A stretch of DNA of 15,785 nt from a bacterium (GTDB lineage: Bacteria > Latescibacterota > UBA2968). The translations under genes and the position numbers were made by a program. This document shows positions 44 to 13,062 of the stretch, in pieces. The notes beneath the pieces are model-generated. The model worked only from the letters and a program-made list of their open reading frames with translations. It searched no databases and was not told the DNA's origin. The stretch's first letter is position 1, and every line of letters begins with the position of its first letter. The DNA lies in the NCBI GenBank assembly GCA_027296045.1, contig JAPUJS010000481.1:1-15785 (forward strand), in the 5' to 3' direction.

Positions 44-58
44 TGGCATACGCCTTGC
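44..58 (+). promoter_or_regulatory. Candidate sigma-54 (RpoN) -24/-12 promoter for the pspA operon
   Basis: TGGCAT-acgcc-TTGCG (GG at -24, GC at -12, 5-nt spacer) fits the TGGCAC-N5-TTGCW consensus. It lies about 75 nt upstream of the pspA ATG. An AT-rich tract (11-40) that could be a bending site lies upstream. psp operons in Enterobacteria are sigma-54 dependent. Confidence 0.6.
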
Positions 59-134
59 GAACAAGAGATGGCGTAACCCGTGAATCACCTGACTTGTCAA
101 ATAGAAAAAAGAATCAAAGAGAGAGGAGAACATC

Positions 135-812
135 ATGGCACGTGGAATCTTTTCAAGAATGGCTGACATCATCAGGGCCAATGTCAATGAACTCGTCACC
201 CGGGCGGAAGACCCGGAAAAGATGATCCGACAAATGATTCTGGAAATGGAAGAGGCCGTTAACAAAGCCACCGCCTCGGTCGGAACCGCCGTGGCCAACG
301 AAAAACGTCTGGAACGGCAGCATCTGGAAAAACAAGACCAAATCGAAGCCTGGCAAAGCAAAGCCGAGCTGGCCGTTGAAGCCGGCGAAGACGACCTTGC
401 CCGACGCGCACTGGAACGCAAATCTGCAATTCAGGCTGCTGTCCAGGACCTGGAAGCCGCCCTGGATGAAAGCAAAAAGACGTCGTCCCAGCTCAAACAG
501 CAGCTCACCCAGCTCAAGGGCAAACTCGACGAAGCCCGCACACGCCAGGTCGCCCTCGTTGCACGCCGTCGGGCTGCCGAAGCACGCAAGCAAATCGCCA
601 AGAGTATAACGGGCGTGGGCGACGATGCCTTTTCCAGTTTTGACCGCTTCCGTCAGCGCATTGAAGCCGAAGAGGCCGAAGCCGAAGCCCATCAGGAAAT
701 CGCCGGTGCCGAACCTTCCCTCGACGACGCCTTTGCCAAACTCGAGCGCAAAAGCTCCGTGGAAGACGAACTCAAAGCCCTGAAAGACAAGATGGGAAAG
801 AAAAATGCGTGA
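135..812 (+). CDS. pspA: Phage shock protein A (PspA/IM30 family, ESCRT-III-like membrane remodelling protein)
   Basis: The N-terminus MARGIFSRMADIIRANVNELVTRAEDPEKMIRQMILEMEEAV closely matches the canonical PspA start [40 protein letters not shown]. The protein is 225 aa, helical, coiled-coil rich and charged. An RBS GAGGAG lies 8 nt upstream. Confidence 0.9.
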   Translation: MARGIFSRMADIIRANVNELVTRAEDPEKMIRQMILEMEEAVNKATASVGTAVANEKRLERQHLEKQDQIEAWQSKAELAVEAGEDDLARRALERKSAIQAAVQDLEAALDESKKTSSQLKQQLTQLKGKLDEARTRQVALVARRRAAEARKQIAKSITGVGDDAFSSFDRFRQRIEAEEAEAEAHQEIAGAEPSLDDAFAKLERKSSVEDELKALKDKMGKKNA

Positions 813-1512
813 TCTAGAAAAACTCGCCGACAAGATCGTCTTCGAAGTTGACAGGGCGGTTCGAGAGGTTCAAGATAAAATAGACCGTACGGTCAAACGA
901 GCAGAACAGAAAGTCAGGAAAGCGGAGCGCAGAACACAGCGGGTGTGGGAGTCGCAACCCGACTGGAGTGAATCCCGGACAGTTCGTGACTTCCAGACCG
1001 CTGCCACCAAAATTAAGAAATTCCCCACCCGCATCTCTGACCTGGCCACCGATGGGAGCTGCGCCATGCGATATCTATTTTCCTACTGTCTGAAAGGTTG
1101 GGCTTTCTGCCAGGGATTCGGCGGTCTCATGCTCGTCGCAATCACACTGGCAACCTCTGAACATCCCTGGCGCCAAGAAGAAATCAGTATTGGCCTGGTA
1201 CTCCTTGCCACCTCACAGGTTCTCTGGTGGATCGGTCAGCGCGTGAACAAATCCGCCGACCAGAAAGCCTACGCCCGCGATCAGCATCGCATCTTACGCC
1301 TTGCCCGCGAAAAAGGCGGCAACCTCACCGTCATCGAAGCCGCTACCGACGGACGGATGACCACCGAAAAAGCCGAAGAAATCCTGAGAGAACTGGCTGT
1401 ACAAGGCCACACCGAAGTCCGTGTCACCGACTCGGGCGTGATGGTCTACCACTTCCCAGAAATTTCCCGCTGGGATGAAAAACAGTGGGCCCGACCGGTT
1501 GACGAACTGTAA
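805..1512 (+). CDS. Membrane protein with N-terminal coiled-coil region, two predicted TM helices and a C-terminal winged-helix-like domain. Possible PspA partner or anchor.
   Basis: The start ATGCGTGA overlaps the pspA stop by 8 nt, which suggests translational coupling. Hydrophobic stretches are GFGGLMLVAITLATS and ISIGLVLLATSQVLWWIG. The C-terminus LTVIEAATDGRMTTEKAEEILRELAVQGHTEVRVTDSGVMVYHF has a wH-like pattern. No confident family assignment. Confidence 0.6.
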   Translation: MRDLEKLADKIVFEVDRAVREVQDKIDRTVKRAEQKVRKAERRTQRVWESQPDWSESRTVRDFQTAATKIKKFPTRISDLATDGSCAMRYLFSYCLKGWAFCQGFGGLMLVAITLATSEHPWRQEEISIGLVLLATSQVLWWIGQRVNKSADQKAYARDQHRILRLAREKGGNLTVIEAATDGRMTTEKAEEILRELAVQGHTEVRVTDSGVMVYHFPEISRWDEKQWARPVDEL

Positions 1513-1523
1513 GGGAGAATCCC

Positions 1524-1727
1524 ATGGACATGGACCTGATTTCGATTGGCTTGATGGTCGCCCTGATCATCCTGGCCTCAGCCGTTCACAAATACGTCGA
1601 CCGGCGCACCAAAGGCTCCATCCCCTCCGAAGCGGAAGAACGATTGATGGACCGGATGAATGAACTCGAACGCAGACTCACCGACATTCAAGATGTGATG
1701 CTCACCATTGACGATAAGCTCAATTGA
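1524..1727 (+). CDS. PspB-like small membrane protein, paralog 1 (N-terminal TM, C-terminal conserved helix motif)
   Basis: 67 aa with TM ISIGLMVALIILASAV. The C-terminus SEAEERLMDRMNELERRLTDIQDVMLTIDDKLN resembles the E. coli PspB tail SEQQRLAQLADEAKRMRERIQALESILDAE. RBS AAGGGAG. Confidence 0.7.
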   Translation: MDMDLISIGLMVALIILASAVHKYVDRRTKGSIPSEAEERLMDRMNELERRLTDIQDVMLTIDDKLN

Positions 1728-1744
1728 AGCTAAGGGAGGACACC

Positions 1745-1954
1745 ATGCTTGGCATCACCATGATGATCGTCATCATCATGCTCGCTTCAGCCGCCTGCAA
1801 ATACGTGGACCGGAAAACCCGCCATTTCGGCCCCTCCGAAGCGGAAAAACGACTGATGGACCGAATGGATGAACTCGAACAAAGGCTCACCGATATTCAA
1901 GACATCATGATCGCTATAGATGACAAGATGAGCCGGCCCGAAATGAAAATGTAA
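1745..1954 (+). CDS. PspB-like small membrane protein, paralog 2
   Basis: Start at ATG 1745 (RBS GGGAGGA 6 nt upstream; the track ORF begins at TTG 1724). TM MMIVIIMLASAA. C-terminus SEAEKRLMDRMDELEQRLTDIQDIMIAIDDKM. About 70% identical to paralog 1. Confidence 0.7.
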   Translation: MLGITMMIVIIMLASAACKYVDRKTRHFGPSEAEKRLMDRMDELEQRLTDIQDIMIAIDDKMSRPEMKM

Positions 1955-1979
1955 AAGCGTCTAAAGGAGGGAACCAAGC

Positions 1980-2225
1980 ATGTCACATGAAATTATACGC
2001 ACCGTCTTGGCCGGCATCGTCACGATCATCCTGTCCTCCGGACTTTGTTATTATATCGTCGAGCGTGCAAAATCAAGACCCTGGAAATCCGGCAAAGCCC
2101 CCGACGTGGAAAAACTCGAACAACGCCTCAAATCCTTGGAACAGCGCCTCACTGATATCCAGGACATTGTTCTCTCCATTGACGATCAACTAAAACGCTC
2201 GTCCGGCATTCCCCTTGAGAAATAA
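1980..2225 (+). CDS. PspB-like small membrane protein, paralog 3
   Basis: 81 aa with TM VLAGIVTIILSSGLCYYIV. C-terminus VEKLEQRLKSLEQRLTDIQDIVLSIDDQLKR. RBS AAAGGAGGG. Confidence 0.7.
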   Translation: MSHEIIRTVLAGIVTIILSSGLCYYIVERAKSRPWKSGKAPDVEKLEQRLKSLEQRLTDIQDIVLSIDDQLKRSSGIPLEK

Positions 2226-2237
2226 AGGTCTGATCCC

Positions 2238-3083
2238 ATGAACAAATACCTTCTGTCCATCCTGGGAATCCTGCTCTCCATTTCGCACATCGAAGCCTAC
2301 GAAGGCCTCGACCTGTCGGCCCAAGATATTGCCCAGTTGTCAGCCGTTGGTGTCACTCCCGAATACGTCCAGCAAATTCAACAACTGGGCTACAAAGATA
2401 TCTCTGCCCATGATATTACCCAACTCTATGCCGTTGGTGTGAAACCAGACTACATACGACAAATACGCAAGCTGGGTTATAAAGATATTTCTATCCACGA
2501 CATTACCCAACTCCACGCCGTTGGAGTCAAACCAGACTATGTGAGACAAATCAAAGACCTGGGCTATAAAAACATTTCCATCCACGACATTACCCAACTC
2601 CACGCCGTTGGGGTCAAACCAAACTATGTGAGACAAATCCAAAATCTCGGTTACGACGATATCTCTATCCATGATATCACACAATTTTATGTAACCGGAG
2701 TAACGCCCGACTATATCAAAAAAATGAAGGGCTCAAAAACAAAAATACATATTCCCGAAATCAAAGTGGACGTGCCCAATATCCAGGTTCATATCCCTGA
2801 AATCAAAGTGAATGTCCCACATATTCAGGTTCATGTCTCTGGAGTACAACATACGCGGTCGAACCCATCACGATGGAAAAATGCAGCAAAAATTGCTGGC
2901 TTGAGTTTTCTGGTTCTCGGCATCGGCTTTGCAGTCTATAAACTGAAAGATCCATATCCTGCACCACCCGAAAAACCGGATATAGAATCCCGAATTACCG
3001 AGTTTGAACAACGTGTCACAGACCTTCAGGATATCTTGATCTCCATTGATGACCGATTAAATCGACAATTGAAACATAACTAA
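2238..3083 (+). CDS. Repeat-rich membrane protein: signal peptide, 5x 29-aa tandem repeats, 2x approximately 16-aa repeats, a single TM, and a PspB-like C-terminal motif (paralog 4)
   Basis: The N-terminus MNKYLLSILGILLSISHIEA looks like a signal peptide. The 29-aa repeat DISIHDITQLHAVGVKPDYVRQIKDLGYK occurs five times, and HIPEIKV(D/N)VP(N/H)IQVH occurs twice. TM IAGLSFLVLGIGFAVY. C-terminus RITEFEQRVTDLQDILISIDDRLNRQ. Nucleotide-level tandem repeats span 2390-2690. Confidence 0.75.
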   Translation: MNKYLLSILGILLSISHIEAYEGLDLSAQDIAQLSAVGVTPEYVQQIQQLGYKDISAHDITQLYAVGVKPDYIRQIRKLGYKDISIHDITQLHAVGVKPDYVRQIKDLGYKNISIHDITQLHAVGVKPNYVRQIQNLGYDDISIHDITQFYVTGVTPDYIKKMKGSKTKIHIPEIKVDVPNIQVHIPEIKVNVPHIQVHVSGVQHTRSNPSRWKNAAKIAGLSFLVLGIGFAVYKLKDPYPAPPEKPDIESRITEFEQRVTDLQDILISIDDRLNRQLKHN

Positions 3084-3106
3084 TTTGATCTTTGGAGGGA
3101 CATCCC

Positions 3107-3436
3107 ATGAAATTTCTGTTCCAGCTTGCACTCTGTATCTGTCTGATCATCCTCACGGCAGGAACCATTGGATTTGTTATAGAAGATGGGGACTTTTTTT
3201 CGGGTGGCATCATGCTGATTGTGGTCTGGAGCATTATGTTCGCAATGCTCAAAAGAGCCCTTATTTTTGGTCAATCGGATCAAACCGATTCTGTCAAACA
3301 GGAATGGGCGGACCGCATCACCACCCTTGAAAAACGCCTCACCGACATCCAGGACGTCGTCATCGCGATCGACGATAAGTTGACACGTCAGGAATTCAGA
3401 TCCGATACGACTGTCCGTTCAAAAGAAGAAGCCTGA
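3107..3436 (+). CDS. PspB-like membrane protein, paralog 5 (two TM helices plus the conserved C-terminal motif)
   Basis: Start ATG 3107 with RBS GGAGGGA 6 nt upstream (the track begins at TTG 3092). TMs LALCICLIILTAGTIGFVI and IMLIVVWSIMFAML. C-terminus ADRITTLEKRLTDIQDVVIAIDDKLTRQ. Confidence 0.7.
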   Translation: MKFLFQLALCICLIILTAGTIGFVIEDGDFFSGGIMLIVVWSIMFAMLKRALIFGQSDQTDSVKQEWADRITTLEKRLTDIQDVVIAIDDKLTRQEFRSDTTVRSKEEA

Positions 3437-3498
3437 TACGGGATGGCGCCAAATATACCTCAACATTTACTCTGGCATCAAAGAGAAAGGACCTGTTG

Positions 3499-3669
3499 AT
3501 GCTTATCAAAATTCTCGGCATTGTCTTCATGATCGTCGGAGGTGGCATGGCCCTGGGAATCCTGTTCCCCCTTATTGGCTCCATTTTCGGACTCTTGTGG
3601 CTGGCCCTCAAACTGGCTATCGCCCTCGTCTTCGTCTACGTCGGTCACCGGCTCTTTTCTCAAGACTAA
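3499..3669 (+). CDS. Small (56 aa) two-TM membrane protein, PspG-like. Not in the supplied ORF track, probably because it is under the apparent 61-aa cutoff.
   Basis: ATG 3499 is preceded by AGAAAGGA. The product MLIKILGIVFMIVGGGMALGILFPLIGSIFGLLWLALKLAIALVFVYVGHRLFSQD is entirely hydrophobic with a GGG turn. Its length and pattern loosely resemble E. coli PspG (LLFVIGFFVMLMVTG...LPWLLLAIAVVWVI). It lies inside the psp-like cluster. Confidence 0.5.
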   Translation: MLIKILGIVFMIVGGGMALGILFPLIGSIFGLLWLALKLAIALVFVYVGHRLFSQD

Positions 3670-3758
3670 TTTCGACCCATACCGGTATGGTTGTGTATCT
3701 CACAACCACGTGCAAAGGTGAATCGCGAACACCTTTGCCACACAAATAAGGATGTACC

Positions 3759-4340
3759 ATGTCTCGTTCCAACGACCAAGCCCTCATTCGCAAAGCGCTC
3801 AAAGGCGATCATCAAGCCTTCGAAACGCTTTATAAAGCACACTACCCCCAGATCTATGGGGTCATTGCCCAGCGAGCAAATGATCGCGATCTGATCGATG
3901 ACCTGGTGCAAAACACCTTCATGCGGGCGTTCCGATCGTTGCACACCTTTAAAGGCAACGCCGCTTTCTCAACCTGGCTCACCCAGATCGCCCTCAATGT
4001 GTACCGATCCCATCTTCGGTCCAAACAGGCCCGACAAAACTGGCTGATCGAAACCGAAGACCCCGAGCTTGTCCCGGGCATCATTCGAAACGTTTCTGCC
4101 TTTGACGATCCGGAACAATCCATGCAGAACAAAGAACGCACCGCCCTCATCCGAAAAGGCATCCAGTCTTTGCCCGAACGATATCGAGAAGCCATGTGGT
4201 TGCGCTATGTCAAAGACTGGTCTTACGAAGAAATTACCCATGCCCTTCAGGTGCCTATTGGCACCGTCAAAACCTGGCTTTGCAGAGCCAGGCGTCAACT
4301 GGCCGGAGAATTTCGCAAGATGGGACTCCAACCCGTTTAA
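3759..4340 (+). CDS. ECF-family RNA polymerase sigma-70 factor (sigma-24/RpoE-like)
   Basis: 193 aa. Region 2 is DLVQNTFMRAFRSLHTFKGNAAFSTWLTQIALNVYRSHLR. Region 4 is LPERYREAMWLRYVKDWSYEEITHALQVPIGTVKTWLCRARRQL. Typical ECF architecture. Confidence 0.9.
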   Translation: MSRSNDQALIRKALKGDHQAFETLYKAHYPQIYGVIAQRANDRDLIDDLVQNTFMRAFRSLHTFKGNAAFSTWLTQIALNVYRSHLRSKQARQNWLIETEDPELVPGIIRNVSAFDDPEQSMQNKERTALIRKGIQSLPERYREAMWLRYVKDWSYEEITHALQVPIGTVKTWLCRARRQLAGEFRKMGLQPV

Positions 4341-4395
4341 ACTTGACGGTGGGGTCATTCTGTCCCTATCTTGCCCAATAATAAGGAGGCCGACT

Positions 4396-5001
4396 ATGGA
4401 AGCCTGGTGGGTCGGACTTGCACCCCTGAACCAGATGCTGTATTCTGTCGCCATCTTTTTCAGCATTTTGTTCCTCTGGCAGTTCCTGAGTGCTTTAATT
4501 GGACTGGGCGGCAGTTCGGACTTCGATGTCGCCGAAACCGGTGCCAGTGAACTGGGCCCCGAAGTAGATGACGGATTTCACGAAAGTGGTATTGCCACCT
4601 TCAAATTGCTCTCCGTCCGATCCGTCATCGCCTTTGGGATGCTCTTCGGCTGGGCAAGTGCCCTCTACCTTGAATCGGGCCTGGACCTCTCAGCCGCTGG
4701 ACTTCGGGGCATCTTCTGGGGTACAGCTGGAATGGCGCTGGTTGCCTATTTTTTCTACAAAGTCCAGCGGCTCACCGAAACCGGTAACCTCAAACTGGAA
4801 ACCTGTGTCGGCACCGATGGCGAAGTTTATATCGACATTCCCCAAAACGGAGCCGGTCAAATCCGAGTAATCGAAAGCGGGGTTGTCAACTATGTATCTG
4901 CCCGAAGCAAAGGGGGGAACGCCATCCCGAACAAAACCTCTGTTCGCGTTCTGAAAACCCTCGATATGACCACAGTGGAAGTCGAACCCACCCATTCCTA
5001 A
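4396..5001 (+). CDS. NfeD-like membrane protein (short NfeD/YuaF family; N-terminal TM helices plus C-terminal OB-fold)
   Basis: Start ATG 4396 with RBS AAGGAGG. The TM-rich N-terminus carries the C-terminus GTDGEVYIDIPQNGAGQIRVIESGVVNYVSARSKGGNAIPNKTSVRVLKTLDMTTVEVEP, typical of the NfeD OB domain. It sits immediately upstream of a flotillin gene, as in yuaF-floT operons. Confidence 0.8.
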   Translation: MEAWWVGLAPLNQMLYSVAIFFSILFLWQFLSALIGLGGSSDFDVAETGASELGPEVDDGFHESGIATFKLLSVRSVIAFGMLFGWASALYLESGLDLSAAGLRGIFWGTAGMALVAYFFYKVQRLTETGNLKLETCVGTDGEVYIDIPQNGAGQIRVIESGVVNYVSARSKGGNAIPNKTSVRVLKTLDMTTVEVEPTHS

Positions 5002-5021
5002 ATCCATCTTCGCCCAGCCTT

Positions 5022-5061
5022 CAGCCGTCTGCTCTCCTGGCCTGGCAAGAGCAGACGGCTG
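5022..5061 (+). other. Perfect 14-bp stem-loop between nfeD-like and flotillin genes (intercistronic hairpin, not a canonical terminator)
   Basis: CAGCCGTCTGCTCT - 12-nt loop - AGAGCAGACGGCTG. Followed by GAGCGCTGAGCGCC and a 4-T run; no real U-tract. Confidence 0.5.
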
Positions 5062-5105
5062 AGCGCTGAGCGCCATTTTCTATCCCAATCGGAGGGGAGG
5101 GTCTT

Positions 5106-6755
5106 ATGCCCATCGAGATGATTCTCATCATCGGACTCGCTGCGGTTGTTGTTCTGCTTTTCATTACTTTTATTTCTCGCTACAAACGCTGTCCGTCCAA
5201 TAGAATCCTGGTCATTTATGGCAAAACCGGTACCGGCACAGCGGCCAAATGCATACACGGAGGTGCCGCCTTTGTAATTCCCCTCCTGCAGGACTATGCA
5301 TATCTCGACCTGGAACCCTTTGTGGTTCCCATCGACCTGGACAACGCATTGTCCCAGGAGAACATCCGTGTCTCGGTGCCCACCACCGTTACAGCGGCCA
5401 TCTCCAATCAGCCCGGCATTATGCAAAATGCGGCCGTTCGCCTTTTAGGACTCAGCCGCCAGCAGGTGCAAAGCCAGGCCCAGGACATCATCCTCGGTCA
5501 GATGCGGGCGGTGATTGCCACGATGCAAATTGAGGAAATCAACCGGGACCGCCAGGGCTTTATGAGCAAGGTCAACGAAGCGGTGTCGACCGAGATGGAA
5601 AAAATCGGCCTTACCGTTATCAACGTAAACATCAAAGATATCGATGACGAAAGCGGCTATATCACAGCCATTGGCCGGAAAGCCGCCGCCGAGGCCGTCA
5701 ACCAGGCCGCCATCGATGTGGCCGAACAGGAAAAAATGGGCAAGGTGGGTGTGGCCGAACGGGATCGCGACCGCCGAAAAGCGGTTGCTGCCGCCGAAGC
5801 CAGTGCCGATATTGGCGAATCGGAAGCCGAACGGGAAAGACGTCGACAGGTCGCCGCACTGAACTCCGAAGCAGAAATCGGCGAATCGGAAGCCGAACGG
5901 GAAAAACGCCGACAGGTTGCCGCATTAAACGCCGAAGCAGAAATCGGCGAGGCAGAAGCCGGACGGGACAAACGGCAGCGCGTGGCATCTCTCGAAGCCG
6001 AGGCTGTCCAGACAGAATCCGAAGCGGACGCCAAAAAAGCCGGGTATCTGGCCAACCAGCGTGTGGCCGAGGAAAGTGCCCGACGCAAAAGCGAAGAAGC
6101 CTCCAAAGCGGCTGACGGTGCCATCCGGGTTGCCCAGGAAAATGCGCAAAAAGAAGCCGAAGAAGCCAGAGCGCTTCGCGAAGAAGCCCGTCTGAAAGCC
6201 GAAGTCGTGGTCCAGGCCGAAGCAGAAAAACAGCGTCAGATTGTGGAAGCCGAAGGCGAAAAAGAACAACGACGCCTGGTTGCCGAAGGCGAAGCCGCCG
6301 CCATTCTTGCCCAGAAAGAAGCCGAAGCCAAGGGAACCCAGGCGATCCTGGATGCCAAGGCCGAAGGTTATCGAAAAATGGTCGAAGCCTGCGACCACAA
6401 CGATCAGGCTGCTGCGGCCTTTCTCATTATTGAACGCCTCACCGAAGTCGCCCACATTCAGGCCGAAGCCATCCGCAACCTGCCCATCGAGAAGATCATG
6501 GTCTGGGACAGTGGCAACGGGGAAAGTGGTATGTCCAACCTGGGCCAGCGGTTGATGGGGGCGATTCCCCCAATGCACGATCTGGCTCGCCTGGCCGGAC
6601 TGGAATTGCCCGAATTCCTGGGTAGACTAACCCAGAAAGAAGACGGGGCCACTGGAAATAACCGGACCGGGGAAAAAACAGAAACGCAGGTCGAAAACCA
6701 GGATGCAGCCCAGGATCAGACAGGCGAGACGACAAAAACAGGCGGGGAAGCGTAA
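5106..6755 (+). CDS. Flotillin (SPFH/Band-7 family, FloT/YuaG/YqiK-like)
   Basis: 549 aa. N-terminal TM IIGLAAVVVLLFITFI, then an SPFH domain (RILVIYGKTGTGTAAKCIHGGAAFVIPLLQDYAYLDLEPF...). Long E/A-rich coiled-coil repeats (EAEIGESEAERERRRQVAALN x3) and a conserved C-terminus IIERLTEVAHIQAEAIRNL. RBS GGAGGGGAGGG. Confidence 0.9.
   Translation: MPIEMILIIGLAAVVVLLFITFISRYKRCPSNRILVIYGKTGTGTAAKCIHGGAAFVIPLLQDYAYLDLEPFVVPIDLDNALSQENIRVSVPTTVTAAISNQPGIMQNAAVRLLGLSRQQVQSQAQDIILGQMRAVIATMQIEEINRDRQGFMSKVNEAVSTEMEKIGLTVINVNIKDIDDESGYITAIGRKAAAEAVNQAAIDVAEQEKMGKVGVAERDRDRRKAVAAAEASADIGESEAERERRRQVAALNSEAEIGESEAEREKRRQVAALNAEAEIGEAEAGRDKRQRVASLEAEAVQTESEADAKKAGYLANQRVAEESARRKSEEASKAADGAIRVAQENAQKEAEEARALREEARLKAEVVVQAEAEKQRQIVEAEGEKEQRRLVAEGEAAAILAQKEAEAKGTQAILDAKAEGYRKMVEACDHNDQAAAAFLIIERLTEVAHIQAEAIRNLPIEKIMVWDSGNGESGMSNLGQRLMGAIPPMHDLARLAGLELPEFLGRLTQKEDGATGNNRTGEKTETQVENQDAAQDQTGETTKTGGEA
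5811..6008 (+). repeat. Three tandem approximately 66-nt in-frame repeats inside flotillin (22-aa EA-rich coiled-coil units)
   Basis: ATCGGCGAATCGGAAGCCGAACGGGAAA(G/A)ACG(T/C)CGACAGGT(C/T)GCCGCA... repeated, with the third copy more diverged. Confidence 0.8.
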
Positions 6756-6824
6756 GGCGTGAAACAGATATTGCGCCAATAACTTCTCAACCGCACACCC
6801 ATTTTTAAACAAAAAATCACAAAA

Positions 6825-6916
6825 GGCCACGAAGTCCAACCGCTCCCTTCCGGGAGCAAAGGTGGGTTTCGTGGCCCTTCGTGAAAGGAAAGGGTCGGAG
6901 TCGAGGCCCTTCGTGA
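6825..6916 (+). promoter_or_regulatory. Structured intergenic region upstream of the histidine kinase gene: a hairpin plus reiterated TTCGTG motifs
   Basis: GGCCACGAAG...(nested CTCCCttccGGGAG)...TTTCGTGGCC forms a hairpin with an approximately 10-bp stem. The direct repeats GGCCCTTCGTGA appear at about 6873-6884 and 6905-6916. Confidence 0.4.
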
Positions 6917-6946
6917 TCCCGCTCTTTACCGAATGAATATGTAGCC

Positions 6947-8581
6947 ATGTCCAACCTCAAAACCGAAACCCACCAGCCCCCTCGGCCTTCCGACCAGATC
7001 GAAATTGCTCGGGAACTCCCGGAATCGTCGAACCCCGAAGCAAGTCGGTTTTCCAGACAGGGGGATGTCGCCCTCAAAAACGGGGACCTGTCCGAAGCAG
7101 TCAAAGCCTATCAAAAAGCCGTCAAGGCCGATCGCAACGACCTTCGCTCTCACCACAACCTGGGCGTGGTTTCCTACCAGCAGGAAAACTGGGAAATGGC
7201 GCAATCCTACCTGGACCGCTGCGTTCAACTTGCCCCCGAAGACTCCGATTTGCTCTTCAAACAGGGCCTGTGTGCCTTGAAACAAAATCGACGTGAAGAG
7301 GCATCCAGAGCCTTTTCCAGTGTCCTGAAATTGGACCCCGACCATCTGCGTTCCCGGTTTCAAGTGGCCCTCCTGCACGCCCGTGGAACGGCCACCGTTT
7401 CCAGAGATCGGCAAAAAGCGATTGAAAACCTGGAATACATCCTGGAGGCCTGCGGCCGGGGCGTGTCCTTCCAGAACCTGGACCGCGTCTGTTTTCTTCT
7501 GGGCAGTTTTCTAGACGACCACCCCGACAATCGCGACCAGGCCATTGCCGTCTATCGACGGGGGCTCGATGTAGATCCCTTTTTCGCCCCGGGTCACAAC
7601 AACCTGGGCGTACTTTTGATGCAAGACGGACAAACACTTCCTGCCCTGGGGGCTTTCAAAATCGCTGTCCAGCTCGAACCCGACTACACCCTGCCCTATG
7701 GCAATCTCGCTCGCCTCTTGTTTGACCATATGAGTCCAACCCAGATGGAGCAAGAATTTGGGTCCATCGTAGACGAGTTTGGTATTCAAGCACCGTCTGT
7801 CCTCGTCCAGCTTTCCCTGGAACTCATCGACCTGGGACGCGGGCAGGTCTACGAAAGCCTTTATACCCACGGCCACCGCATCAAAAACTTGATGGGCATG
7901 TCTGGCGCCCGAATGCGGCGTCTGATTCGCGATTTCCCCCAGGATGCGCACGGCCTGGATGAACTTCAAAGCATTGCCCACGACCAGGAACAGATCTTCA
8001 ACCAGTGGGTCGCCTATCTCCGGTCGATGAAACAGGGGACAATGAACCTCACCCTGGTTGACGTGTCCCAACTCGTTCATAAAACCACCGGCGGCCTGTC
8101 TGCCCAGGCCGGATCAAAAACCCTGCACTTTGCATCCGAAACCCGGGTTCCCCAGGTCAAAGCAGATGCCGGTATGCTTCGGGAAGCCGTGACCAACCTC
8201 ACCCTCAATGCCCTGCAAGCCGTAGAGGAAGAAAGCGGCAAAGTCACCGTTCAAGTGGGACACGATCCATTGCGCGCCTCCGTTTATATCGAAGTCGAAG
8301 ACAACGGACCTGGCATCCCTGATGCCCAACAAGCCCGGATCTTCGACCCCGGTTATACCACCCGTCAAAACGGCAACGGCTACGGCTTGAGCATCTGTGC
8401 CCGAATCGCCTCCGCACACCGGGGCCACCTGCGCCTGATCAGCCAGCCGGGAGCCGGAGCAGTCTTTCGCATCGACCTCCCGATCGACTTTGAAGTGTCT
8501 GCCCAGGAAGACACCATTGGTCTCCAGCGTTCTGTTGCAGACGTTTCCACCGATCCGGTGACCGAAGAATTCGTTCTATAA
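6947..8581 (+). CDS. Soluble sensor histidine kinase with an N-terminal TPR-repeat domain and a C-terminal HATPase_c
   Basis: TPR-like repeats (AVKAYQKAVKADRNDLRSHHNLGVV; WEMAQSYLDRCVQLAPEDSDLLFKQGLC). N-box LREAVTNLTLNALQA. G1 VEDNGPGIP. G2 GNGYGLSICARI. No TM segment. Candidate H-site SIAHDQEQIFNQ, which is non-canonical. Confidence 0.8.
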   Translation: MSNLKTETHQPPRPSDQIEIARELPESSNPEASRFSRQGDVALKNGDLSEAVKAYQKAVKADRNDLRSHHNLGVVSYQQENWEMAQSYLDRCVQLAPEDSDLLFKQGLCALKQNRREEASRAFSSVLKLDPDHLRSRFQVALLHARGTATVSRDRQKAIENLEYILEACGRGVSFQNLDRVCFLLGSFLDDHPDNRDQAIAVYRRGLDVDPFFAPGHNNLGVLLMQDGQTLPALGAFKIAVQLEPDYTLPYGNLARLLFDHMSPTQMEQEFGSIVDEFGIQAPSVLVQLSLELIDLGRGQVYESLYTHGHRIKNLMGMSGARMRRLIRDFPQDAHGLDELQSIAHDQEQIFNQWVAYLRSMKQGTMNLTLVDVSQLVHKTTGGLSAQAGSKTLHFASETRVPQVKADAGMLREAVTNLTLNALQAVEEESGKVTVQVGHDPLRASVYIEVEDNGPGIPDAQQARIFDPGYTTRQNGNGYGLSICARIASAHRGHLRLISQPGAGAVFRIDLPIDFEVSAQEDTIGLQRSVADVSTDPVTEEFVL

Positions 8582-8611
8582 TCCTTGCAGGCGTTTCTAC
8601 CGATCCGTTCG
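8536..8611 (+). repeat. Imperfect direct duplication of the histidine-kinase 3' end
   Basis: TTGCAGACGTTTCCACCGATCCGGT...GTTCTATAA (in the gene) versus TTGCAGGCGTTTCTACCGATCCGTTCGTTTTATAA (just downstream). Confidence 0.7.
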
Positions 8612-8641
8612 TTTTATAACCCTATTTGGAAAATTTCATCA

Positions 8642-8693
8642 ATCGATTTATCTTGTATCGATCGACTTGTCTTGTAAATCGACTTATCTTGTT
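8642..8693 (+). promoter_or_regulatory. Three tandem 16-bp direct repeats ending exactly at the response-regulator start codon
   Basis: ATCGATTTATCTTGTA (8642-8657), ATCGACTTGTCTTGTA (8661-8676), ATCGACTTATCTTGTT (8678-8693). The ATG is at 8694. Confidence 0.75.
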
Positions 8694-10103
8694 ATGAATA
8701 AACAAATTCTTGTTGCAGACGACCAGATTGAAGTTCTCGATATGCTCATCCGAAGCCTTCAGGCCGATGAGCGAGACGTCCAGGCCTTTTCCACCGGAAG
8801 GGAAGCCCTCGTCTATCTCCAGCAACACCCATCGGATGTGGACATGGCCATTCTGGATCTGGATTTTGGCCCCGACGAGCCCGATGGCCTGGAGATCTTG
8901 CAGCAAATGCGGGACGAAATCCCCGACCTGCCCGTCATCATCCTCACCGGACAGGGCACCATTGATACGGCCGTGGCTGCCCTGAGACTGGGTGCGGTGG
9001 ACTTTATCGAAAAAGACTTCTATATTGAAGATAAAATCGAGATCAGTCTGGAAAAGCTGGACCGGATGCTCACGGCGCTCCGGGAAAACGCCCGGCTCAA
9101 GGTTGAGGTCCAAAATTTGGACCGGGAAAACCAGCTTTACCGATCGGAATTCGGCAAGCGCTACCGCGTAATCGGCGACAGCCCCCAGTGGCAACAGGTC
9201 CTGCGCCAGGCCGAACAAATTGCGTCCATTCCCCGACCTGCCCTCATCCTGGGCGAGCCCGGCACGGGCAAAGAACTGGTTGCCGCTGCCATTCACTATG
9301 GAGGGGTGCGCAAAGATCGCCCTTTTGTAAAAGTCAACTGCGCCGCCCTGTCCGACCAACTCCTGGCAAGTGAACTCTTCGGGCATGAGAAAGGCGCTTA
9401 CACGGGTGCTACAGAAGCCCGCATCGGCAAATTTGAAGCCGCCAATGGCGGTACGATTTTCCTCGATGAAATAGGAAATACCACCCCGGGATTTCAGCAA
9501 AATATCCTTCGGGCCATCGAATATCAGGAAGTTCAGCGCGTTGGATCGGCAACCCCGGTCTCTGTAGACACCCGGGTGATTGCCGCTACCAACGCCGACC
9601 TGGAAAAAGAAATGGCCGAAGGCCGTTTTCGCCAGGACCTCTACGACCGCCTGCGTTTCGAAGTCATTCGAATGCCCCCCCTCCGAGAACGCCGGGAAGA
9701 CATCGCAGACCTGGCCAATTTCTTTGTTGCACAAATCACCGAGGAAGTCCCCGGACTCCAGGTTCGACCGTTCTCGGATGAGGCCCTGAAAAATCTTCAA
9801 ACCTACCACTGGCCCGGCAATGTACGGGAACTCAAGTTTGCCGCCGAACGAGCCGCCTGTGTGGCCACCGGTTCTCAAATCGAGCCCGGTGATTTGCCGC
9901 CCGAAATCGCCGGCGATGTTCCGATTGTCTCCTCCGGTGAAGGATATGAAGCCCAGATCAGAGCCTTCGAACTGGGCCTGCTCAGACGGTCGTTGAACGA
10001 AACCGTCTGGAACCAGCGGGAGGCGGCCAAAAAACTCAAGCTCAGCTACGACCAGTTCCGGCATCTGTATCGAAAATACAAACTCAATCGTGAGAAACCC
10101 TAA
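8694..10103 (+). CDS. Sigma-54-dependent response regulator (NtrC family: receiver + AAA+ sigma-54 interaction domain + Fis-type HTH)
   Basis: Receiver MNKQILVADDQ...DMAILDLDFG...LTGQGTIDTAVAALRLGAVDFIEKD. Walker A GEPGTGKE. The GAFTGA-type loop ELFGHEKGAYTGA. ESELFG and RERREDI motifs. C-terminal HTH WNQREAAKKLKLSYDQFRHLYRKYKL. Start chosen at 8694; an in-frame ATG at 8667 is also possible. Confidence 0.9.
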   Translation: MNKQILVADDQIEVLDMLIRSLQADERDVQAFSTGREALVYLQQHPSDVDMAILDLDFGPDEPDGLEILQQMRDEIPDLPVIILTGQGTIDTAVAALRLGAVDFIEKDFYIEDKIEISLEKLDRMLTALRENARLKVEVQNLDRENQLYRSEFGKRYRVIGDSPQWQQVLRQAEQIASIPRPALILGEPGTGKELVAAAIHYGGVRKDRPFVKVNCAALSDQLLASELFGHEKGAYTGATEARIGKFEAANGGTIFLDEIGNTTPGFQQNILRAIEYQEVQRVGSATPVSVDTRVIAATNADLEKEMAEGRFRQDLYDRLRFEVIRMPPLRERREDIADLANFFVAQITEEVPGLQVRPFSDEALKNLQTYHWPGNVRELKFAAERAACVATGSQIEPGDLPPEIAGDVPIVSSGEGYEAQIRAFELGLLRRSLNETVWNQREAAKKLKLSYDQFRHLYRKYKLNREKP

Positions 10104-10114
10104 ATAAAAGTATT

Positions 10115-10223
10115 CAGGAGACAGAAGACAGGAGACAGGAGCCGCTCCACTCATCCGCCCAGGAGAAACAAAGGCGGGGTTGGGTGGGGCTCCTGTATTC
10201 TGTCTCCTGTCTCCTGTCTCCTG
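10115..10223 (+). repeat. Long imperfect palindrome built from (CAGGAGACA)n on the left arm and (TGTCTCCTG)n on the right arm. Possible terminator or translational control element.
   Basis: Left arm CAGGAGACAGAAGACAGGAGACAGGAGCC and right arm GGCTCCTGTATTCTGTCTCCTGTCTCCTGTCTCCTG. The approximately 45-nt loop contains a nested CCGCCC/GGCGGG stem. It ends 7 nt before ATG 10231 and is followed by ATTTCTT. Confidence 0.7.
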
Positions 10224-10230
10224 ATTTCTT

Positions 10231-11817
10231 ATGCTACACCCCAAAACCCCCAAACTCAGCCTCCGGACCTGCTTTTTCGACAGCTTCACCTTGTGGGTGA
10301 ACCACATCCCTGTCCTGTTTATCGCCACCTTTCTCACCTTCTTCCTCAGCTCGATTACCTTCACCTTGTTTATGGGCAGTCTCTACGCCGGCTTGCTGAT
10401 GATGCTTTTACAAGGCCTGCGCGGGGAGAAGCCCATTTTACGAGACCTCTTTGGCCAGTTTCGTCGCTTCATCCGCTTTTTCTCCATTACCCTGTTTATC
10501 TTGCTCTTCTTCATTTTCGGGCTTGCCCTCCTGGCCGGACCGCTTTTTTTTCTTTCCAATACCGAAATTCCATCCGAGATCCTCCAGGAAATCGAAGCCG
10601 GGATGCAAGAGGAAGGCATTCACCTTCGCCCCAGAGAAATTCTGCAATTTGTCAAAAACAGCGATTTTCTTGTCCCCGCCATCCTGATCACATTCTGCTT
10701 TATCGTGCTTCCTGGCATTTTTTTTATTGTCAAATGCTTCTACATGTATCTCCTGGCCGCCGACCGGGGCGTTCACCTGGATGAAGCTTATGTCGAAAGC
10801 CGAAAAGCCGTTGAGAGATACGGGTTCCGAAAGCATTTTTTTCTTATTTTTGCCGCCCTGGCCATCTTCTTCGGAAGCGATCTGATGGTTCGCAAAATGA
10901 CCGATGTCCCCATCGCCGAATTTTTTCCGCTCTTTGTCTTCCCCTTTGCCGTGGGCCTGTTTGTTTCGGCCTACCACCAGACCTTAGAAGCTGAAGCCCG
11001 ACAATCTCAGTTTTATCGCGAAGAGTTTGAAGTCATGCGCGACGAACTCCAGACCGCCCATGACATGCAAATGGAGCTGCTTCCCGATGAAAGCCCCGAA
11101 CTCTCCGGGTTCTCCCTGGATGGAACCTGCATCCCGGCCAATAACGTGGGCGGCGATTATTTCGCCTATCGCTGGCTCGATACAGAAAAAACGCGGCTGG
11201 CCATCCTGGTTGCCGATGTCTCCGGAAAGGCGATGGAAGCCGCCGTCACGGCCCTTCGCTTCAACGAAATGCTCCGATATGAATCTCGCGCCCGGATCGA
11301 TCCGGGCGAAATCCTGGATGGATTAAACGATTCGCTGGAAGGACAGATCGACACCGATACCTTTATCACCTGTGTGATTGGCGTCCTGGATATCACAGAC
11401 AATATCATTCACATTGCCAACGCCGGTCACTGTTTCCCCTATCACTACCGGGACCGAGATCAAAAAGCCGTCCCGGTTAATCTCACGGGCTGCCCGCTCG
11501 GCCTGCCCGCCATCATTCGGCCGGAAGAGCCGTATGAAACCCGTCAGGTCAAACTCGAACCGGGTGATATGATCGCCTTCTACTCCGACGGGGTGGTCGA
11601 AGCCCAGAATGCCCGGCACGAACTGTATGAAGATGAGCGCTTTGAAAAACTCCTGGAAACCATTGCGCCGGGAGCAAAACCAGACCGGGTGGTTCGAGCC
11701 GTTGTCCGGGAAGTCAATCAATATATCGGAGATGCCCCACGAACCGACGACGTCACCATTGTGGTTTTAAAACGGGACGGCCAGAGCGGCCCGGCAAACG
11801 ATTCGGAAACACCCTGA
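10231..11817 (+). CDS. Polytopic membrane PP2C-family (SpoIIE/RsbU-type) serine phosphatase
   Basis: An N-terminal hydrophobic domain of about 250 aa with 5 or more TM segments, then a coiled-coil linker. PPM domain motifs: GGDYFAYRWL, LAILVADVSGKAMEAA, ANAGHCFPY, GDMIAFYSDGVVEAQN, DDVTIVVLK. No SD upstream (see the palindrome), so the exact start is uncertain. Confidence 0.8.
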   Translation: MLHPKTPKLSLRTCFFDSFTLWVNHIPVLFIATFLTFFLSSITFTLFMGSLYAGLLMMLLQGLRGEKPILRDLFGQFRRFIRFFSITLFILLFFIFGLALLAGPLFFLSNTEIPSEILQEIEAGMQEEGIHLRPREILQFVKNSDFLVPAILITFCFIVLPGIFFIVKCFYMYLLAADRGVHLDEAYVESRKAVERYGFRKHFFLIFAALAIFFGSDLMVRKMTDVPIAEFFPLFVFPFAVGLFVSAYHQTLEAEARQSQFYREEFEVMRDELQTAHDMQMELLPDESPELSGFSLDGTCIPANNVGGDYFAYRWLDTEKTRLAILVADVSGKAMEAAVTALRFNEMLRYESRARIDPGEILDGLNDSLEGQIDTDTFITCVIGVLDITDNIIHIANAGHCFPYHYRDRDQKAVPVNLTGCPLGLPAIIRPEEPYETRQVKLEPGDMIAFYSDGVVEAQNARHELYEDERFEKLLETIAPGAKPDRVVRAVVREVNQYIGDAPRTDDVTIVVLKRDGQSGPANDSETP

Positions 11818-11842: not shown

Positions 11843-13012
11843 ATGAACGATACGGAAAACCTGATCCTGATCCACTATCACGAAATCGGCCTGAAGGGGA
11901 AAAATCGAGGCCGATTCGAACGCCAGCTCCAGAGCAATATTAACCGTGCCCTGAAAGGCCTCAGCCGGGGACCGGTCCAACGTCTGTACGGACGTATCAT
12001 CCTGAAGTTGAAACCCGATTCCCCAATCGGCGTGATTCGAGACCGCCTGACTGGCATTTCCGGCATCGCCAATTTTTCCGAAGCCATCCGTGTTCCAAAA
12101 GAGATCGAAATCATCCGGGAAACGGCCTGGGCGGTGGCCCAGAAAGCCACCTTCGAATCCTTTCGAATCACCACCAAGCGGGGCGACAAATCCTTCCCGA
12201 TGCTCTCCGAAGAAGTCAACCGGGATGTGGGCGCTTATATTCAGGAACGTTTAAACGCCCGGGTCCAACTGGTTGGCCCCGACCTGACCTGCTACATTGA
12301 AATCACTCAGGAAGACGTCTTTATCTACGCCGAAAAAGTCTCTGGTCCCGGCGGCTTGCCCGTTGGGACCGGAGAACGCGCCTTAAGCCTCCTTTCTTCG
12401 GGCCTGGACTCGCCGGTCGCCTCCTACAAAATGATCAAGCGGGGAGTGCGCCTCTCCTTCGTCCATTTTCACAGCCAGCCCTATACCAATCGTAACTCCC
12501 AACGCAACACCGAAGAACTGGTTCGACTGCTCACACAGTATCAGTTCAAATCGACACTCTACCTGGTCCCCTTTGTGGAAATCCAGCGTCATATCATGAG
12601 GAACGCCCCGGAGAACTACCGTGTCATCCTCTACCGGCGTTTCATGTTCCGCATTGCCGAAACCCAGGCCAACCAGGAAGGAGCGCTTGCCCTGGTTACC
12701 GGCGAAAGCGTAGGCCAGGTCGCTTCTCAAACCCTCGCTAACATCAAAGCCATCGAGGAAGTCACGCTCCTGCCCGTGTTGCGTCCCTTAGCCGGTGACA
12801 ACAAAGATGAAATCATCGACGAAGCCAGGCGCATTGGCACCTACGACATCTCCATCGAACCCTACGAAGACTGCTGTTCGGTCTTTGTGCCCAAACACCC
12901 CGAAACCCGGGCCGATCTGGAGAAAGTCCATAAAATCGAAGCGGAGCTGGAACTCGATGAAATCTTGCGGCAAACCTTGAGGCAAACAGAGGTCAAAACA
13001 TTTAAGCTTTAA
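11843..13012 (+). CDS. thiI: tRNA 4-thiouridine(8) synthase ThiI (short form without rhodanese domain)
   Basis: N-terminal ferredoxin-like and THUMP region (LILIHYHEIGLKGKNRGRFE). PP-loop LSLLSSGLDSPVASY. 389 aa with no C-terminal rhodanese extension. Confidence 0.85.
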   Translation: MNDTENLILIHYHEIGLKGKNRGRFERQLQSNINRALKGLSRGPVQRLYGRIILKLKPDSPIGVIRDRLTGISGIANFSEAIRVPKEIEIIRETAWAVAQKATFESFRITTKRGDKSFPMLSEEVNRDVGAYIQERLNARVQLVGPDLTCYIEITQEDVFIYAEKVSGPGGLPVGTGERALSLLSSGLDSPVASYKMIKRGVRLSFVHFHSQPYTNRNSQRNTEELVRLLTQYQFKSTLYLVPFVEIQRHIMRNAPENYRVILYRRFMFRIAETQANQEGALALVTGESVGQVASQTLANIKAIEEVTLLPVLRPLAGDNKDEIIDEARRIGTYDISIEPYEDCCSVFVPKHPETRADLEKVHKIEAELELDEILRQTLRQTEVKTFKL

Positions 13013-13023
13013 TCCAGGTGCAG

Positions 13024-13062
13024 AAAAAAATGAGCCCGGAGCACTCACAATGCTCATTTTTT
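13024..13062. terminator. Probable bidirectional intrinsic terminator between convergent thiI and the LysR gene
   Basis: AAAAAAATGAGC - loop - GCTCATTTTTT. The A-run and T-run flank a short GC-poor stem, so it is symmetric for both strands. Confidence 0.5.

Follow-up and report, generated by a model that had tools for sequence, protein, structure and literature searches.

We analysed a 15,785-bp contig from the metagenome-assembled genome of a Latescibacterota bacterium (JAPUJS010000481.1; locus tags O7G87_180xx), the whole of which is called the window here and which carries a psp-type envelope-stress locus headed by pspA, the gene for the bacterial ESCRT-III homolog. Listing and translation of the open reading frames placed 14 co-directional genes on the + strand between 135 and 11817, or 15 between 135 and 13012 when thiI is counted, with a LysR gene on the - strand and then ino1 lying 3' of them (Table 1). 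An initial annotation of this DNA had described at least 11 co-directional and tightly spaced genes. The common direction extended to 14 genes on the + strand, but tight spacing was found in the first half only, the successive gaps between the 15 genes being -8, 11, 17, 25, 12, 23, 59, 89, 55, 104, 191, 112, 127, and 25 nucleotides (nt). Rfam and tRNA scans of the window gave no matches. On balance we read the locus as the probable Latescibacterota version of the Psp envelope-stress system, composed of a conserved six-part core and lineage-specific modules. The analysis supported what the initial annotation had proposed in outline, namely a locus of psp type that has a sigma-54 promoter and an enhancer-binding regulator of its own and encodes small membrane proteins in an array.

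Table 1. Features of the locus in the coordinates of the window (aa, amino acids; TM, transmembrane; ECF, extracytoplasmic function; TPR, tetratricopeptide repeat)
Feature	Coordinates	Strand	Length	Evidence and remarks
Sigma-54-type promoter element	44..59	+		TGGCATacgccTTGCG; -24 GG and -12 GC; 75 nt 5' of the pspA ATG
pspA (PspA/IM30, ESCRT-III superfamily)	135..812	+	225 aa	PF04012, E = 1.4e-45
unk2	805..1512	+	235 aa	No family name; start overlaps the pspA stop by 8 nt
Small paralog 1	1524..1727	+	67 aa	One N-terminal TM helix; C-terminal motif LERRLTDIQDVMLTIDDKL; hmmsearch, 113 bits
Small paralog 2	1745..1954	+	69 aa from ATG	Alignment, hmmsearch; TTG at 1724 possible
Small paralog 3	1980..2225	+	81 aa	Alignment, hmmsearch
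Paralog 4	2238..3083	+	281 aa	Signal peptide, about five extracytoplasmic repeats, TM helix, C-terminal motif
Paralog 5	3107..3436	+	109 aa	Two TM helices and motif; alignment, hmmsearch
Tiny 2-TM protein	3496..3669	+	57 aa	Conserved; directly after the paralog array (alignment)
ECF-type sigma factor	3759..4340	+	193 aa	Sigma70_r2, E = 6.4e-17; r4_2, E = 4.6e-16
Sigma-70-like promoter candidate	4343..4372	+		TTGACG-18-TATCTT; in the ECF-nfeD gap; consensus match only
Divergent NfeD (YuaF/YqiJ type)	4396..5001	+	201 aa	Three TM helices, C-terminal beta (OB-like) domain
Flotillin-type SPFH protein	5106..6755	+	549 aa	Band_7, E = 8.7e-28
Soluble TPR histidine kinase	6947..8581	+	544 aa	TPR and HATPase_c; H-box LYTHGHRIKNLMG
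NtrC-type response regulator / sigma-54 enhancer-binding protein	8694..10103	+	469 aa	Response_reg, Sigma54_activat, AAA_lid_14
Membrane PP2C phosphatase, SpoIIE type	10231..11817	+	528 aa	PF07228, E = 2.2e-47; accessory
thiI	11843..13012	+		ThiI, THUMP, and ThiI_fer domains
Terminator-like hairpin, then T-run	13039..13055	+		3' of thiI; consensus scan only

The first gene encodes a PspA, as annotated initially. The protein matched PF04012 with 156 bits (cut-off 33.9) over profile positions 1-217 of 220, and its 185 bits against TIGR02977 lay under the equivalog cut-off of 242.95; it is a member of the PspA/IM30 family outside the proteobacterial ortholog group. Relatives were gathered with the profile of the family encoded by the second gene, unk2, which yielded 46 species-level loci, all from Latescibacterota; individual loci are cited by their L numbers. 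The sequences related to the window are labelled Latescibacterota, with a few labelled Gemmatimonadota. The contig index gave no exact match to the PspA of the window. A GG-N10-GC element was present 56-94 nt 5' of the pspA start in all 47 distinct upstream regions of relatives, and 45 of the 47 elements had two or fewer mismatches to the sigma-54 consensus, with diverged flanking sequence. We estimated the chance of a comparable match at about 2% per 400-nt region. Counting sites was uninformative, since the window held 5 sites versus 7.2 expected by chance. The case for the promoter, a candidate in the initial annotation, therefore rests on the conservation of the element while the surrounding DNA diverged and not on counts, and on this computational ground the predicted sigma-54 promoter of pspA is well supported. 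Because the window begins 43 nt 5' of the element, any binding site for an activator would lie outside it. A second conserved motif, ATTTT(C/T)ACCAACTT, was seen in 27 of the 47 distinct upstream regions (L001-L052), about 160-230 nt 5' of pspA and about 100 nt 5' of the sigma-54 element, which is beyond the 5' edge of the window; the upstream motif was also written as ATTTTCACCAACTT. The ATTTT(C/T)ACCAACTT motif may be where the activator or IHF binds.

The second gene, overlooked by the initial annotation, encodes a protein for which neither Pfam nor NCBIfam gave a match and whose family comprises 135 clusters, none of them named. Its AlphaFold 2 model (pLDDT 73) showed a long N-terminal helix, two helices forming a hydrophobic hairpin, with hydrophobicity peaking at residues 100 and 127, and, at the C-terminus, a winged-helix domain. 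Foldseek matched this model to winged-helix proteins with E-values from 4e-3 to 3e-2. Two ESCRT-II chains were among the top four matches, but all E-values exceeded 1e-3 and thus gave no evidence of homology between unk2 and ESCRT-II, so the protein was not taken as an ESCRT-II homolog. The 8-nt overlap of pspA and unk2 was kept in 51 of 51 loci, and unk2 homologs with 37-43% identity directly followed pspA in L055 and L060. In one species (L006/L030, 10772-13309) two transposase genes of the ISL3 and ISAZ013 types lie between unk2 and the paralogs, and split the presumed operon there.

The five genes that follow encode small membrane proteins that are paralogs of one another and have in common the C-terminal motif LExRLTDIQDxxxxIDDxL with 11 invariant columns (R..LE.R.TD.QD....IDD across the whole alignment). 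They are built from an N-terminal TM region, basic residues, and the helical motif. Paralog 4 has hydrophobic peaks at residues 5 and 217, and its gene contains tandem repeats of 87 nt (3.4 copies) and 42 nt (2.2 copies); in the protein about five copies of DIS.HDITQL.AVGVKPDY.RQI..LGY are followed by the short repeat IHIPEIKV.VP.IQVH. It gave weak matches to the XAC0231 family (4.5e-7) and to Post_transc_reg, and long forms resembling it occur in other species (L025, L027, and L028). The number of array copies per locus ranged from 0 to 5, with three the commonest, none detected in two loci, and the maximum of five in the window. Members were positioned between unk2 and the ECF gene only, and nowhere else in the 20-kb loci. 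In an exhaustive profile search the family amounted to 215 clusters at 50% identity without a Pfam family. A protein of 1854 aa (P0382) matched the motif profile in nine separate stretches and may be a repeat protein built from the helix of the paralog motif.

The initial annotation had called this array a multiplied PspB-like family. Five paralogs with the architecture and position of PspB are indeed present, but none of them matched a PspB profile (0 of 5 with PF06667 or TIGR02976 at E < 0.1). The Pfam PspC domain (PF04024) was not matched by any window paralog either, and paralog 3 gave a weak match to the C-terminal half of the PspC model TIGR02978 (E = 9.7e-4). Only 4 of 128 distant family members matched PF06667 (best 1e-3). 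When these 128 were compared with 18,950 NCBIfam models, the most recurrent weak matches were to PspC and PspB, with 12 members matching TIGR02978 (best E = 1.2e-5, in its C-terminal TM and zipper part) and 7 matching TIGR02976 (best E = 1.8e-4). Comparison of two family alignments with E. coli PspB by hhalign gave P of about 0.008 and a probability of 5% in two different registers, which we read as similarity at the level of coiled coils. The small family is PspB/PspC-like in form, that is, in its architecture and its position after pspA.

Directly after the array, the tiny 2-TM protein is encoded 5' of the ECF gene across Latescibacterota, and it also follows the paralogs in L056, L057, and L060. 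The initial annotation had proposed a PspG-like peptide. The protein is a conserved one with two TM helices, and PspG was rejected since neither the window protein nor 13 homologs matched PF09583 even at E <= 1. Matches to LiaF-TM were insignificant (E >= 0.25). In L057 (11328-11690), where the context of pspA is the most divergent, the tiny protein occurs as a tandem internal duplication of 120 aa.

Two regulators named in the initial annotation, a soluble TPR kinase and a sigma-54 enhancer-binding response regulator, were both recovered by domain searches. The HATPase_c domain of the kinase scored 84 bits, and the protein has no hydrophobic segment (maximum hydropathy 1.23). The Pfam HisKA model itself was not matched, and an H-box of the form GH(R/Q)(I/L)KN was kept in six orthologs. 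In the activator, Sigma54_activat scored 211 bits and the receiver domain 70 bits, a GAYTGA loop is present, and HTH_8 was matched weakly and only in a relative. The best NCBIfam match of the activator was PspF (TIGR02974), at 341 bits under a cut-off of 443.55. Its AAA+ domain was 47% identical to that of E. coli PspF, with a K aligned to PspF W56. The activator is not PspF proper, as indicated by its receiver domain, its score below the TIGR02974 cut-off, and the K at the W56 position. It is the sole activator in the locus, and its AAA+ domain is closest to PspF. On the - strand, an open reading frame of 580 aa (8622-10364) runs antisense across the whole activator gene and has a counterpart of 675 aa in L048; it probably arises from the codon composition and does not code for a protein.

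The gene order kept among the relatives is pspA, unk2, small paralogs, tiny 2-TM protein, ECF sigma factor, nfeD and flotillin (where present), TPR kinase, activator, PP2C (where present), and thiI. The block with pspA, SPFH, and ECF genes, for which the initial annotation had suggested a synteny check, is thus syntenic in 46 Latescibacterota species, though the flanks are equally so. We further looked up the contexts of distant members of the small family. Three were informative, and three others, on contigs of about 1 kb, were uninformative. L055 and L060 have the order pspA, unk2 homolog, two or three paralogs, tiny 2-TM protein (L060), TPR kinase, and activator; the kinase orthologs near pspA were 43-45% identical to the kinase of the window and the activators 57-58% identical to its activator. 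Neither locus contained ECF, NfeD-flotillin, or PP2C genes, and both flanks differed from those of the main loci. L057/L058 have the order pspA, a TM2 domain fused to the motif, a 439-aa protein (CBM9-like ectodomain, TM helix, and motif), a 333-aa protein (ectodomain, TM helix, and motif), and the duplicated tiny protein, with no two-component system nearby. The small family and the tiny protein therefore accompany pspA, and the TPR kinase and activator do so in 2 of the 3 contexts.

Because the divergent loci with different flanks keep only these parts, we took the core to consist of six parts: pspA with its sigma-54 promoter, unk2, one to five small proteins, the tiny protein, the soluble kinase with its TPR region, and an NtrC-type activator that carries a receiver. 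The ECF sigma factor, NfeD-flotillin, and PP2C were taken as later add-ons. The variation of NfeD-flotillin and PP2C between species supports the view of optional modules; nfeD and flotillin were absent together from 7 of 43 species, and among the 36 species with sufficiently long sequence, PP2C was encoded 3' of the activator in 20 and missing in 16. The single integrated super-locus of the initial annotation did not hold for this reason, as the divergent loci keep only the core.

We considered whether the genes are merely neighbours. In that case three or four unrelated units (the psp operon, the operon of nfeD and flotillin, and the two-component system together with PP2C and thiI) would be juxtaposed by a phylum-wide gene order, and the two-component system would control something else. 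The equal synteny of the flanks on both sides, the distance of only -4 to 8 nt between thiI and the PP2C gene in most relatives (25 nt in the window), the coming and going of NfeD-flotillin and PP2C without other changes, and the separate sigma-70-like promoter candidate 5' of nfeD all speak for this explanation. Since flanks and thiI are as conserved as the regulators, synteny and spacing over-predict membership and cannot alone show a common function, and synteny was discarded as sufficient proof. In L055 and L060, however, where both flanks have changed and the other modules are missing, pspA and the small proteins still have the TPR kinase and activator beside them, and a sigma-54 promoter requires an activator, of which the locus has only one. 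We regard a chance neighbourhood of the whole locus as unlikely. It fits NfeD-flotillin, PP2C, and thiI reasonably well, and these are the parts that the core-and-modules interpretation already treats as add-ons. In L023, which is without PP2C, thiI directly follows the activator. Because of its tight packing in relatives, thiI is probably co-transcribed with the regulators, as a passenger and not as a member of the system.

The ECF assignment of the initial annotation was confirmed by Sigma70_r2 and r4_2 and by 110.5 bits against TIGR02937 (cut-off 42.9). The protein has sigma-2 and sigma-4 regions only. The gene is followed by nfeD, or in other species by the kinase gene, and it is absent from the divergent loci L055, L060, and L057. 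The tiny gene and the ECF gene lie 89 nt apart in the window versus about 11-31 nt in several relatives, and the shorter gap fits co-transcription. The 89-nt spacer (3670-3758) carries two short inverted repeats, GGTTGTG..CACAACC and AAAGGTG..CACCTTT. One could suppose that the ECF sigma factor is the centre of the system, with the paralogs, the tiny protein, or unk2 as its anti-sigma factors or co-regulators and PspA as one product of its regulon. The ECF gene is indeed without a canonical anti-sigma gene and close behind the tiny gene in several loci, and pspA is under the control of ECF factors in both B. subtilis and M. tuberculosis (PMC8144471). We nevertheless consider an ECF-centred system improbable, since L055, L060, and L057 have pspA together with the paralogs and the tiny protein but no ECF gene, the conserved promoter of pspA is of the sigma-54 and not the ECF type, and no anti-sigma domain was detected in any protein.

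The next two genes encode NfeD and flotillin, also in agreement with the initial annotation. The window NfeD itself matched no Pfam or NCBIfam model; 15 of 30 homologs weakly matched PF01957, several bear an NfeD COG description in JGI naming, and the sole PDB sequence match of the family profile was YuaF. The AlphaFold 2 model showed three TM helices and five strands at residues 141-198, and its top four Foldseek matches in the PDB were all NfeD proteins, namely YuaF (2k14, E = 1.8e-5), YbbJ (8z5g), PH1510-C (3wwv, TM-score 0.82), and MTH693 (2k5h). The identity of the protein as NfeD was confirmed in this way, through its homologs and the predicted structure rather than a profile match of its own. 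The gene lies directly 5' of the SPFH gene with a gap of 104 nt. The SPFH protein scored 98 bits against PF01145 (cut-off 23.6) and has an N-terminal TM helix (residue 1) followed by a long charged coiled coil; its best NCBIfam match was FloT (NF058507), at 155 bits under a cut-off of 700. Within the coiled coil (5814-6001) a 66-nt (22-aa) tandem repeat, AEIGESEAEREKRRQVAALNAE, is present in 2.4-2.8 copies.

The membrane PP2C phosphatase of the initial annotation was likewise recovered, with a SpoIIE domain and a hydrophobic N-terminal half of about 8 segments. In 13 related species of one clade (L004, L033-L049) a STAS gene, encoding a protein of 124 aa, lies inside the paralog array, and STAS and PP2C genes were never found together in related loci. 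At least four species of the STAS clade (L004/L043, L047, and L048) have an unrelated helical protein of about 600 aa encoded 3' of the activator in the place of PP2C (in L048 at 17707-19620); it gave no domain match, and PP2C was not detected in the remaining species of the clade. The phosphatase had also been called a partner-switch type, which would imply that a SpoIIE-type PP2C dephosphorylates a STAS anti-anti-sigma factor and thereby frees the ECF sigma factor. The SpoIIE/RsbU type of the phosphatase and the STAS gene within the array of the 13 species speak for such a switch. Yet the window contains no STAS gene and no gene for an anti-sigma kinase (HATPase_c_2), STAS and PP2C were never seen together in the loci compared, PP2C is missing in 16 of 36 species, and at least four STAS-bearing species have the different gene of about 600 aa after the activator. 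We therefore judge partner switching very improbable, and this part of the initial annotation was not upheld.

The transcription units can be outlined from the elements found. A first unit likely runs from the sigma-54 promoter and pspA through the ECF gene. The ECF-nfeD gap has a median of 135 nt in relatives and carries TTGAC(A/G)...TATCAT elements similar to the candidate in the window, and a second unit likely runs from this element (4343-4372) through nfeD, flotillin, kinase, activator, PP2C, and thiI to the hairpin at 13039-13055. Two spacers in the second unit contain repeats. The kinase-activator spacer (112 nt) has three copies of a 19-nt unit, ATCAATCGACTTATCTTGT, at 8638-8692, where most relatives have a spacer of only 3-22 nt, and the activator-PP2C spacer has about five copies of the 7-nt unit CTCCTGT at 10190-10223, where the spacer is 5 nt in most relatives.

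From the core and its modules, the following course of the response can be proposed. The small membrane proteins, which differ in their membrane and extracytoplasmic parts, would report membrane damage through their common cytoplasmic helix (RRLTDIQD...IDDKL). The soluble TPR kinase would read this signal by protein-protein contact and phosphorylate the activator, and the phosphorylated activator would open the sigma-54 promoter of pspA. The PspA made in this way may be docked at the membrane by the translationally coupled winged-helix protein, by the tiny protein, or by both. The ECF gene, added at the end of the pspA operon without an anti-sigma partner, would be switched on transcriptionally and widen the response to other genes. 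Such wiring has an analogy in HrpR/HrpS, sigma-54, and HrpL of Pseudomonas syringae, in which sigma-54 activators control the transcription of an ECF sigma factor that has no anti-sigma factor; that pathway governs type III secretion and is unrelated to membrane stress, so the analogy is for the wiring only. The nfeD-flotillin pair, with its own sigma-70-like promoter candidate, and the membrane PP2C would be further additions, and NfeD-flotillin probably serves as a membrane scaffold alongside PspA, a role recorded for PspA systems elsewhere (PMC8581546).

A stronger version of this proposal is that the three unnamed families are new, dedicated partners of PspA that replace PspB and PspC, that the array is a multi-input sensor read by the TPR kinase, and that unk2 is the membrane receptor of PspA. 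The array would then offer several types of input domain (single TM, double TM, repeat ectodomain, and CBM9-like ectodomain) on one common cytoplasmic helix, and unk2 would loosely recall the winged-helix ESCRT-II that recruits ESCRT-III. We put this version forward only tentatively, as possible but doubtful.

Several points weigh against reading the locus as a Psp system of this kind. Evidence from sequence for homology between the small proteins and PspB or PspC is weak. Synteny extends to flanking genes on both sides, upstream to a LysM amidase, a heavy-metal ATPase, and hisA-like and AIR synthase-like genes, and downstream to thiI, the LysR gene, and ino1, with thiI packed as tightly as the regulators. 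The comparators appear to come all from Latescibacterota or from unidentified metagenome lineages (a cluster-mate of the L060 PspA is labelled Latescibacteria), which limits the independence of the contexts. No rpoN and no activator binding site was found within the 15.8-kb window. Pfam and NCBIfam searches detected no anti-sigma domain in any protein neighbouring the ECF gene, and inspection of the tiny-ECF and ECF-nfeD gaps across loci revealed no convincing ECF target promoter; the dual transcriptional control proposed in the initial annotation is an inference. Moreover, all mechanistic steps beyond the presence of the genes are ones that we infer.

Beyond a few model bacteria, little is understood of the way in which systems of the PspA type (bacterial ESCRT-III) sense damage to the membrane. 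The locus offers a phylum-wide and well-delimited alternative wiring, in which a TPR kinase and an NtrC-type activator would stand in place of a PspF restrained by PspA, together with three conserved partner families that have neither a name nor a Pfam model. Should the array in fact signal to the TPR kinase, it would provide a tractable case of several membrane sensors converging on one cytoplasmic kinase, and this route would be an entry of signals into the sigma-54 psp response that was not described before. The optional status of the ECF sigma factor, flotillin-NfeD, and PP2C tempers the idea of a single super-machine. Since Latescibacterota are uncultured, any test would require heterologous reconstitution.

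Parts of this arrangement have precedents. PspA beside a band-7/flotillin protein and a YuaF/YqiJ-type NfeD protein with three TM helices was published by Ravi et al. 2024 (PMC11237479), who also reported PspB duplications inside psp operons, and PspA with band 7, FloT, and NfeD was described in Acidobacteriota by Popp et al. 2022 (PMC9239133). In B. subtilis, PspA is connected with the membrane through the SPFH protein YdjI (PMC8581546). In the same species, ECF factors control pspA, floA, and floT as a dispersed regulon, and in E. coli pspA is controlled by sigma-54 and PspF (PMC8144471). The term ECF is absent from both surveys of PspA (PMC11237479 and PMC9239133); "Latescibacter" is absent from PMC11237479, and within the library searched no paper joins Latescibacter with "phage shock". 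The novel features of the locus are its three partner families without names, a soluble TPR kinase with a receiver-type activator as the proposed psp regulator, and the embedded ECF gene.

Compared with the proteobacterial pspF-pspABC(DE) of E. coli and Yersinia, the locus shares a sigma-54 promoter 5' of pspA, small single-pass membrane proteins with a cytoplasmic helix after pspA, and an activator whose AAA+ domain is 47% identical to PspF. It differs in that the activator carries a receiver, is paired with a soluble TPR kinase, lacks W56, and is encoded co-directionally rather than divergently, in that the PspC domain is missing and the small proteins fall below the PspB models, and in the additional winged-helix membrane protein, tiny 2-TM protein, ECF sigma factor, NfeD-flotillin, and PP2C. 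With the published PspA-flotillin-NfeD operons (PMC11237479, PMC9239133) it has in common PspA, a flotillin made of TM, band-7, and coiled-coil parts, and a 3-TM NfeD in one neighbourhood. A CesT/Tir-PspA pair, in many cases joined by an AAA+ ATPase, forms the basis of those operons, whereas the window has neither CesT/Tir nor that ATPase, and its flotillin pair is separated from pspA by eight genes, is preceded by a promoter candidate of its own, and can be dispensed with, as in 7 of 43 species. The sigma-W regulon of B. subtilis (pspA-ydjGHI, yuaF-floT, and yqeZ-floA; PMC8144471) likewise combines an ECF sigma factor, PspA, flotillins, and NfeD proteins, there as a single functional response to stress, but its genes are scattered and its ECF factor is controlled by the anti-sigma factor RsiW, while in the window the genes are adjacent, the promoter of pspA is of the sigma-54 type, and no anti-sigma gene was seen. 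LiaIH-LiaFSR of Bacillus resembles the scheme proposed here in that a two-component system induces a PspA homolog, which in Lia is anchored by an adjacently encoded small membrane protein; LiaS, however, is a membrane kinase and LiaR a sigma-70-type regulator, and the sole hint from sequence is the insignificant LiaF-TM match. The mycobacterial clgR-pspA-pspM-pspN differs in its regulators, and no sequence relation to PspM or PspN was detected, but it too has a lineage-specific membrane partner (PspM) after pspA and a link to an ECF factor, sigma-E (PMC11237479, PMC8144471).

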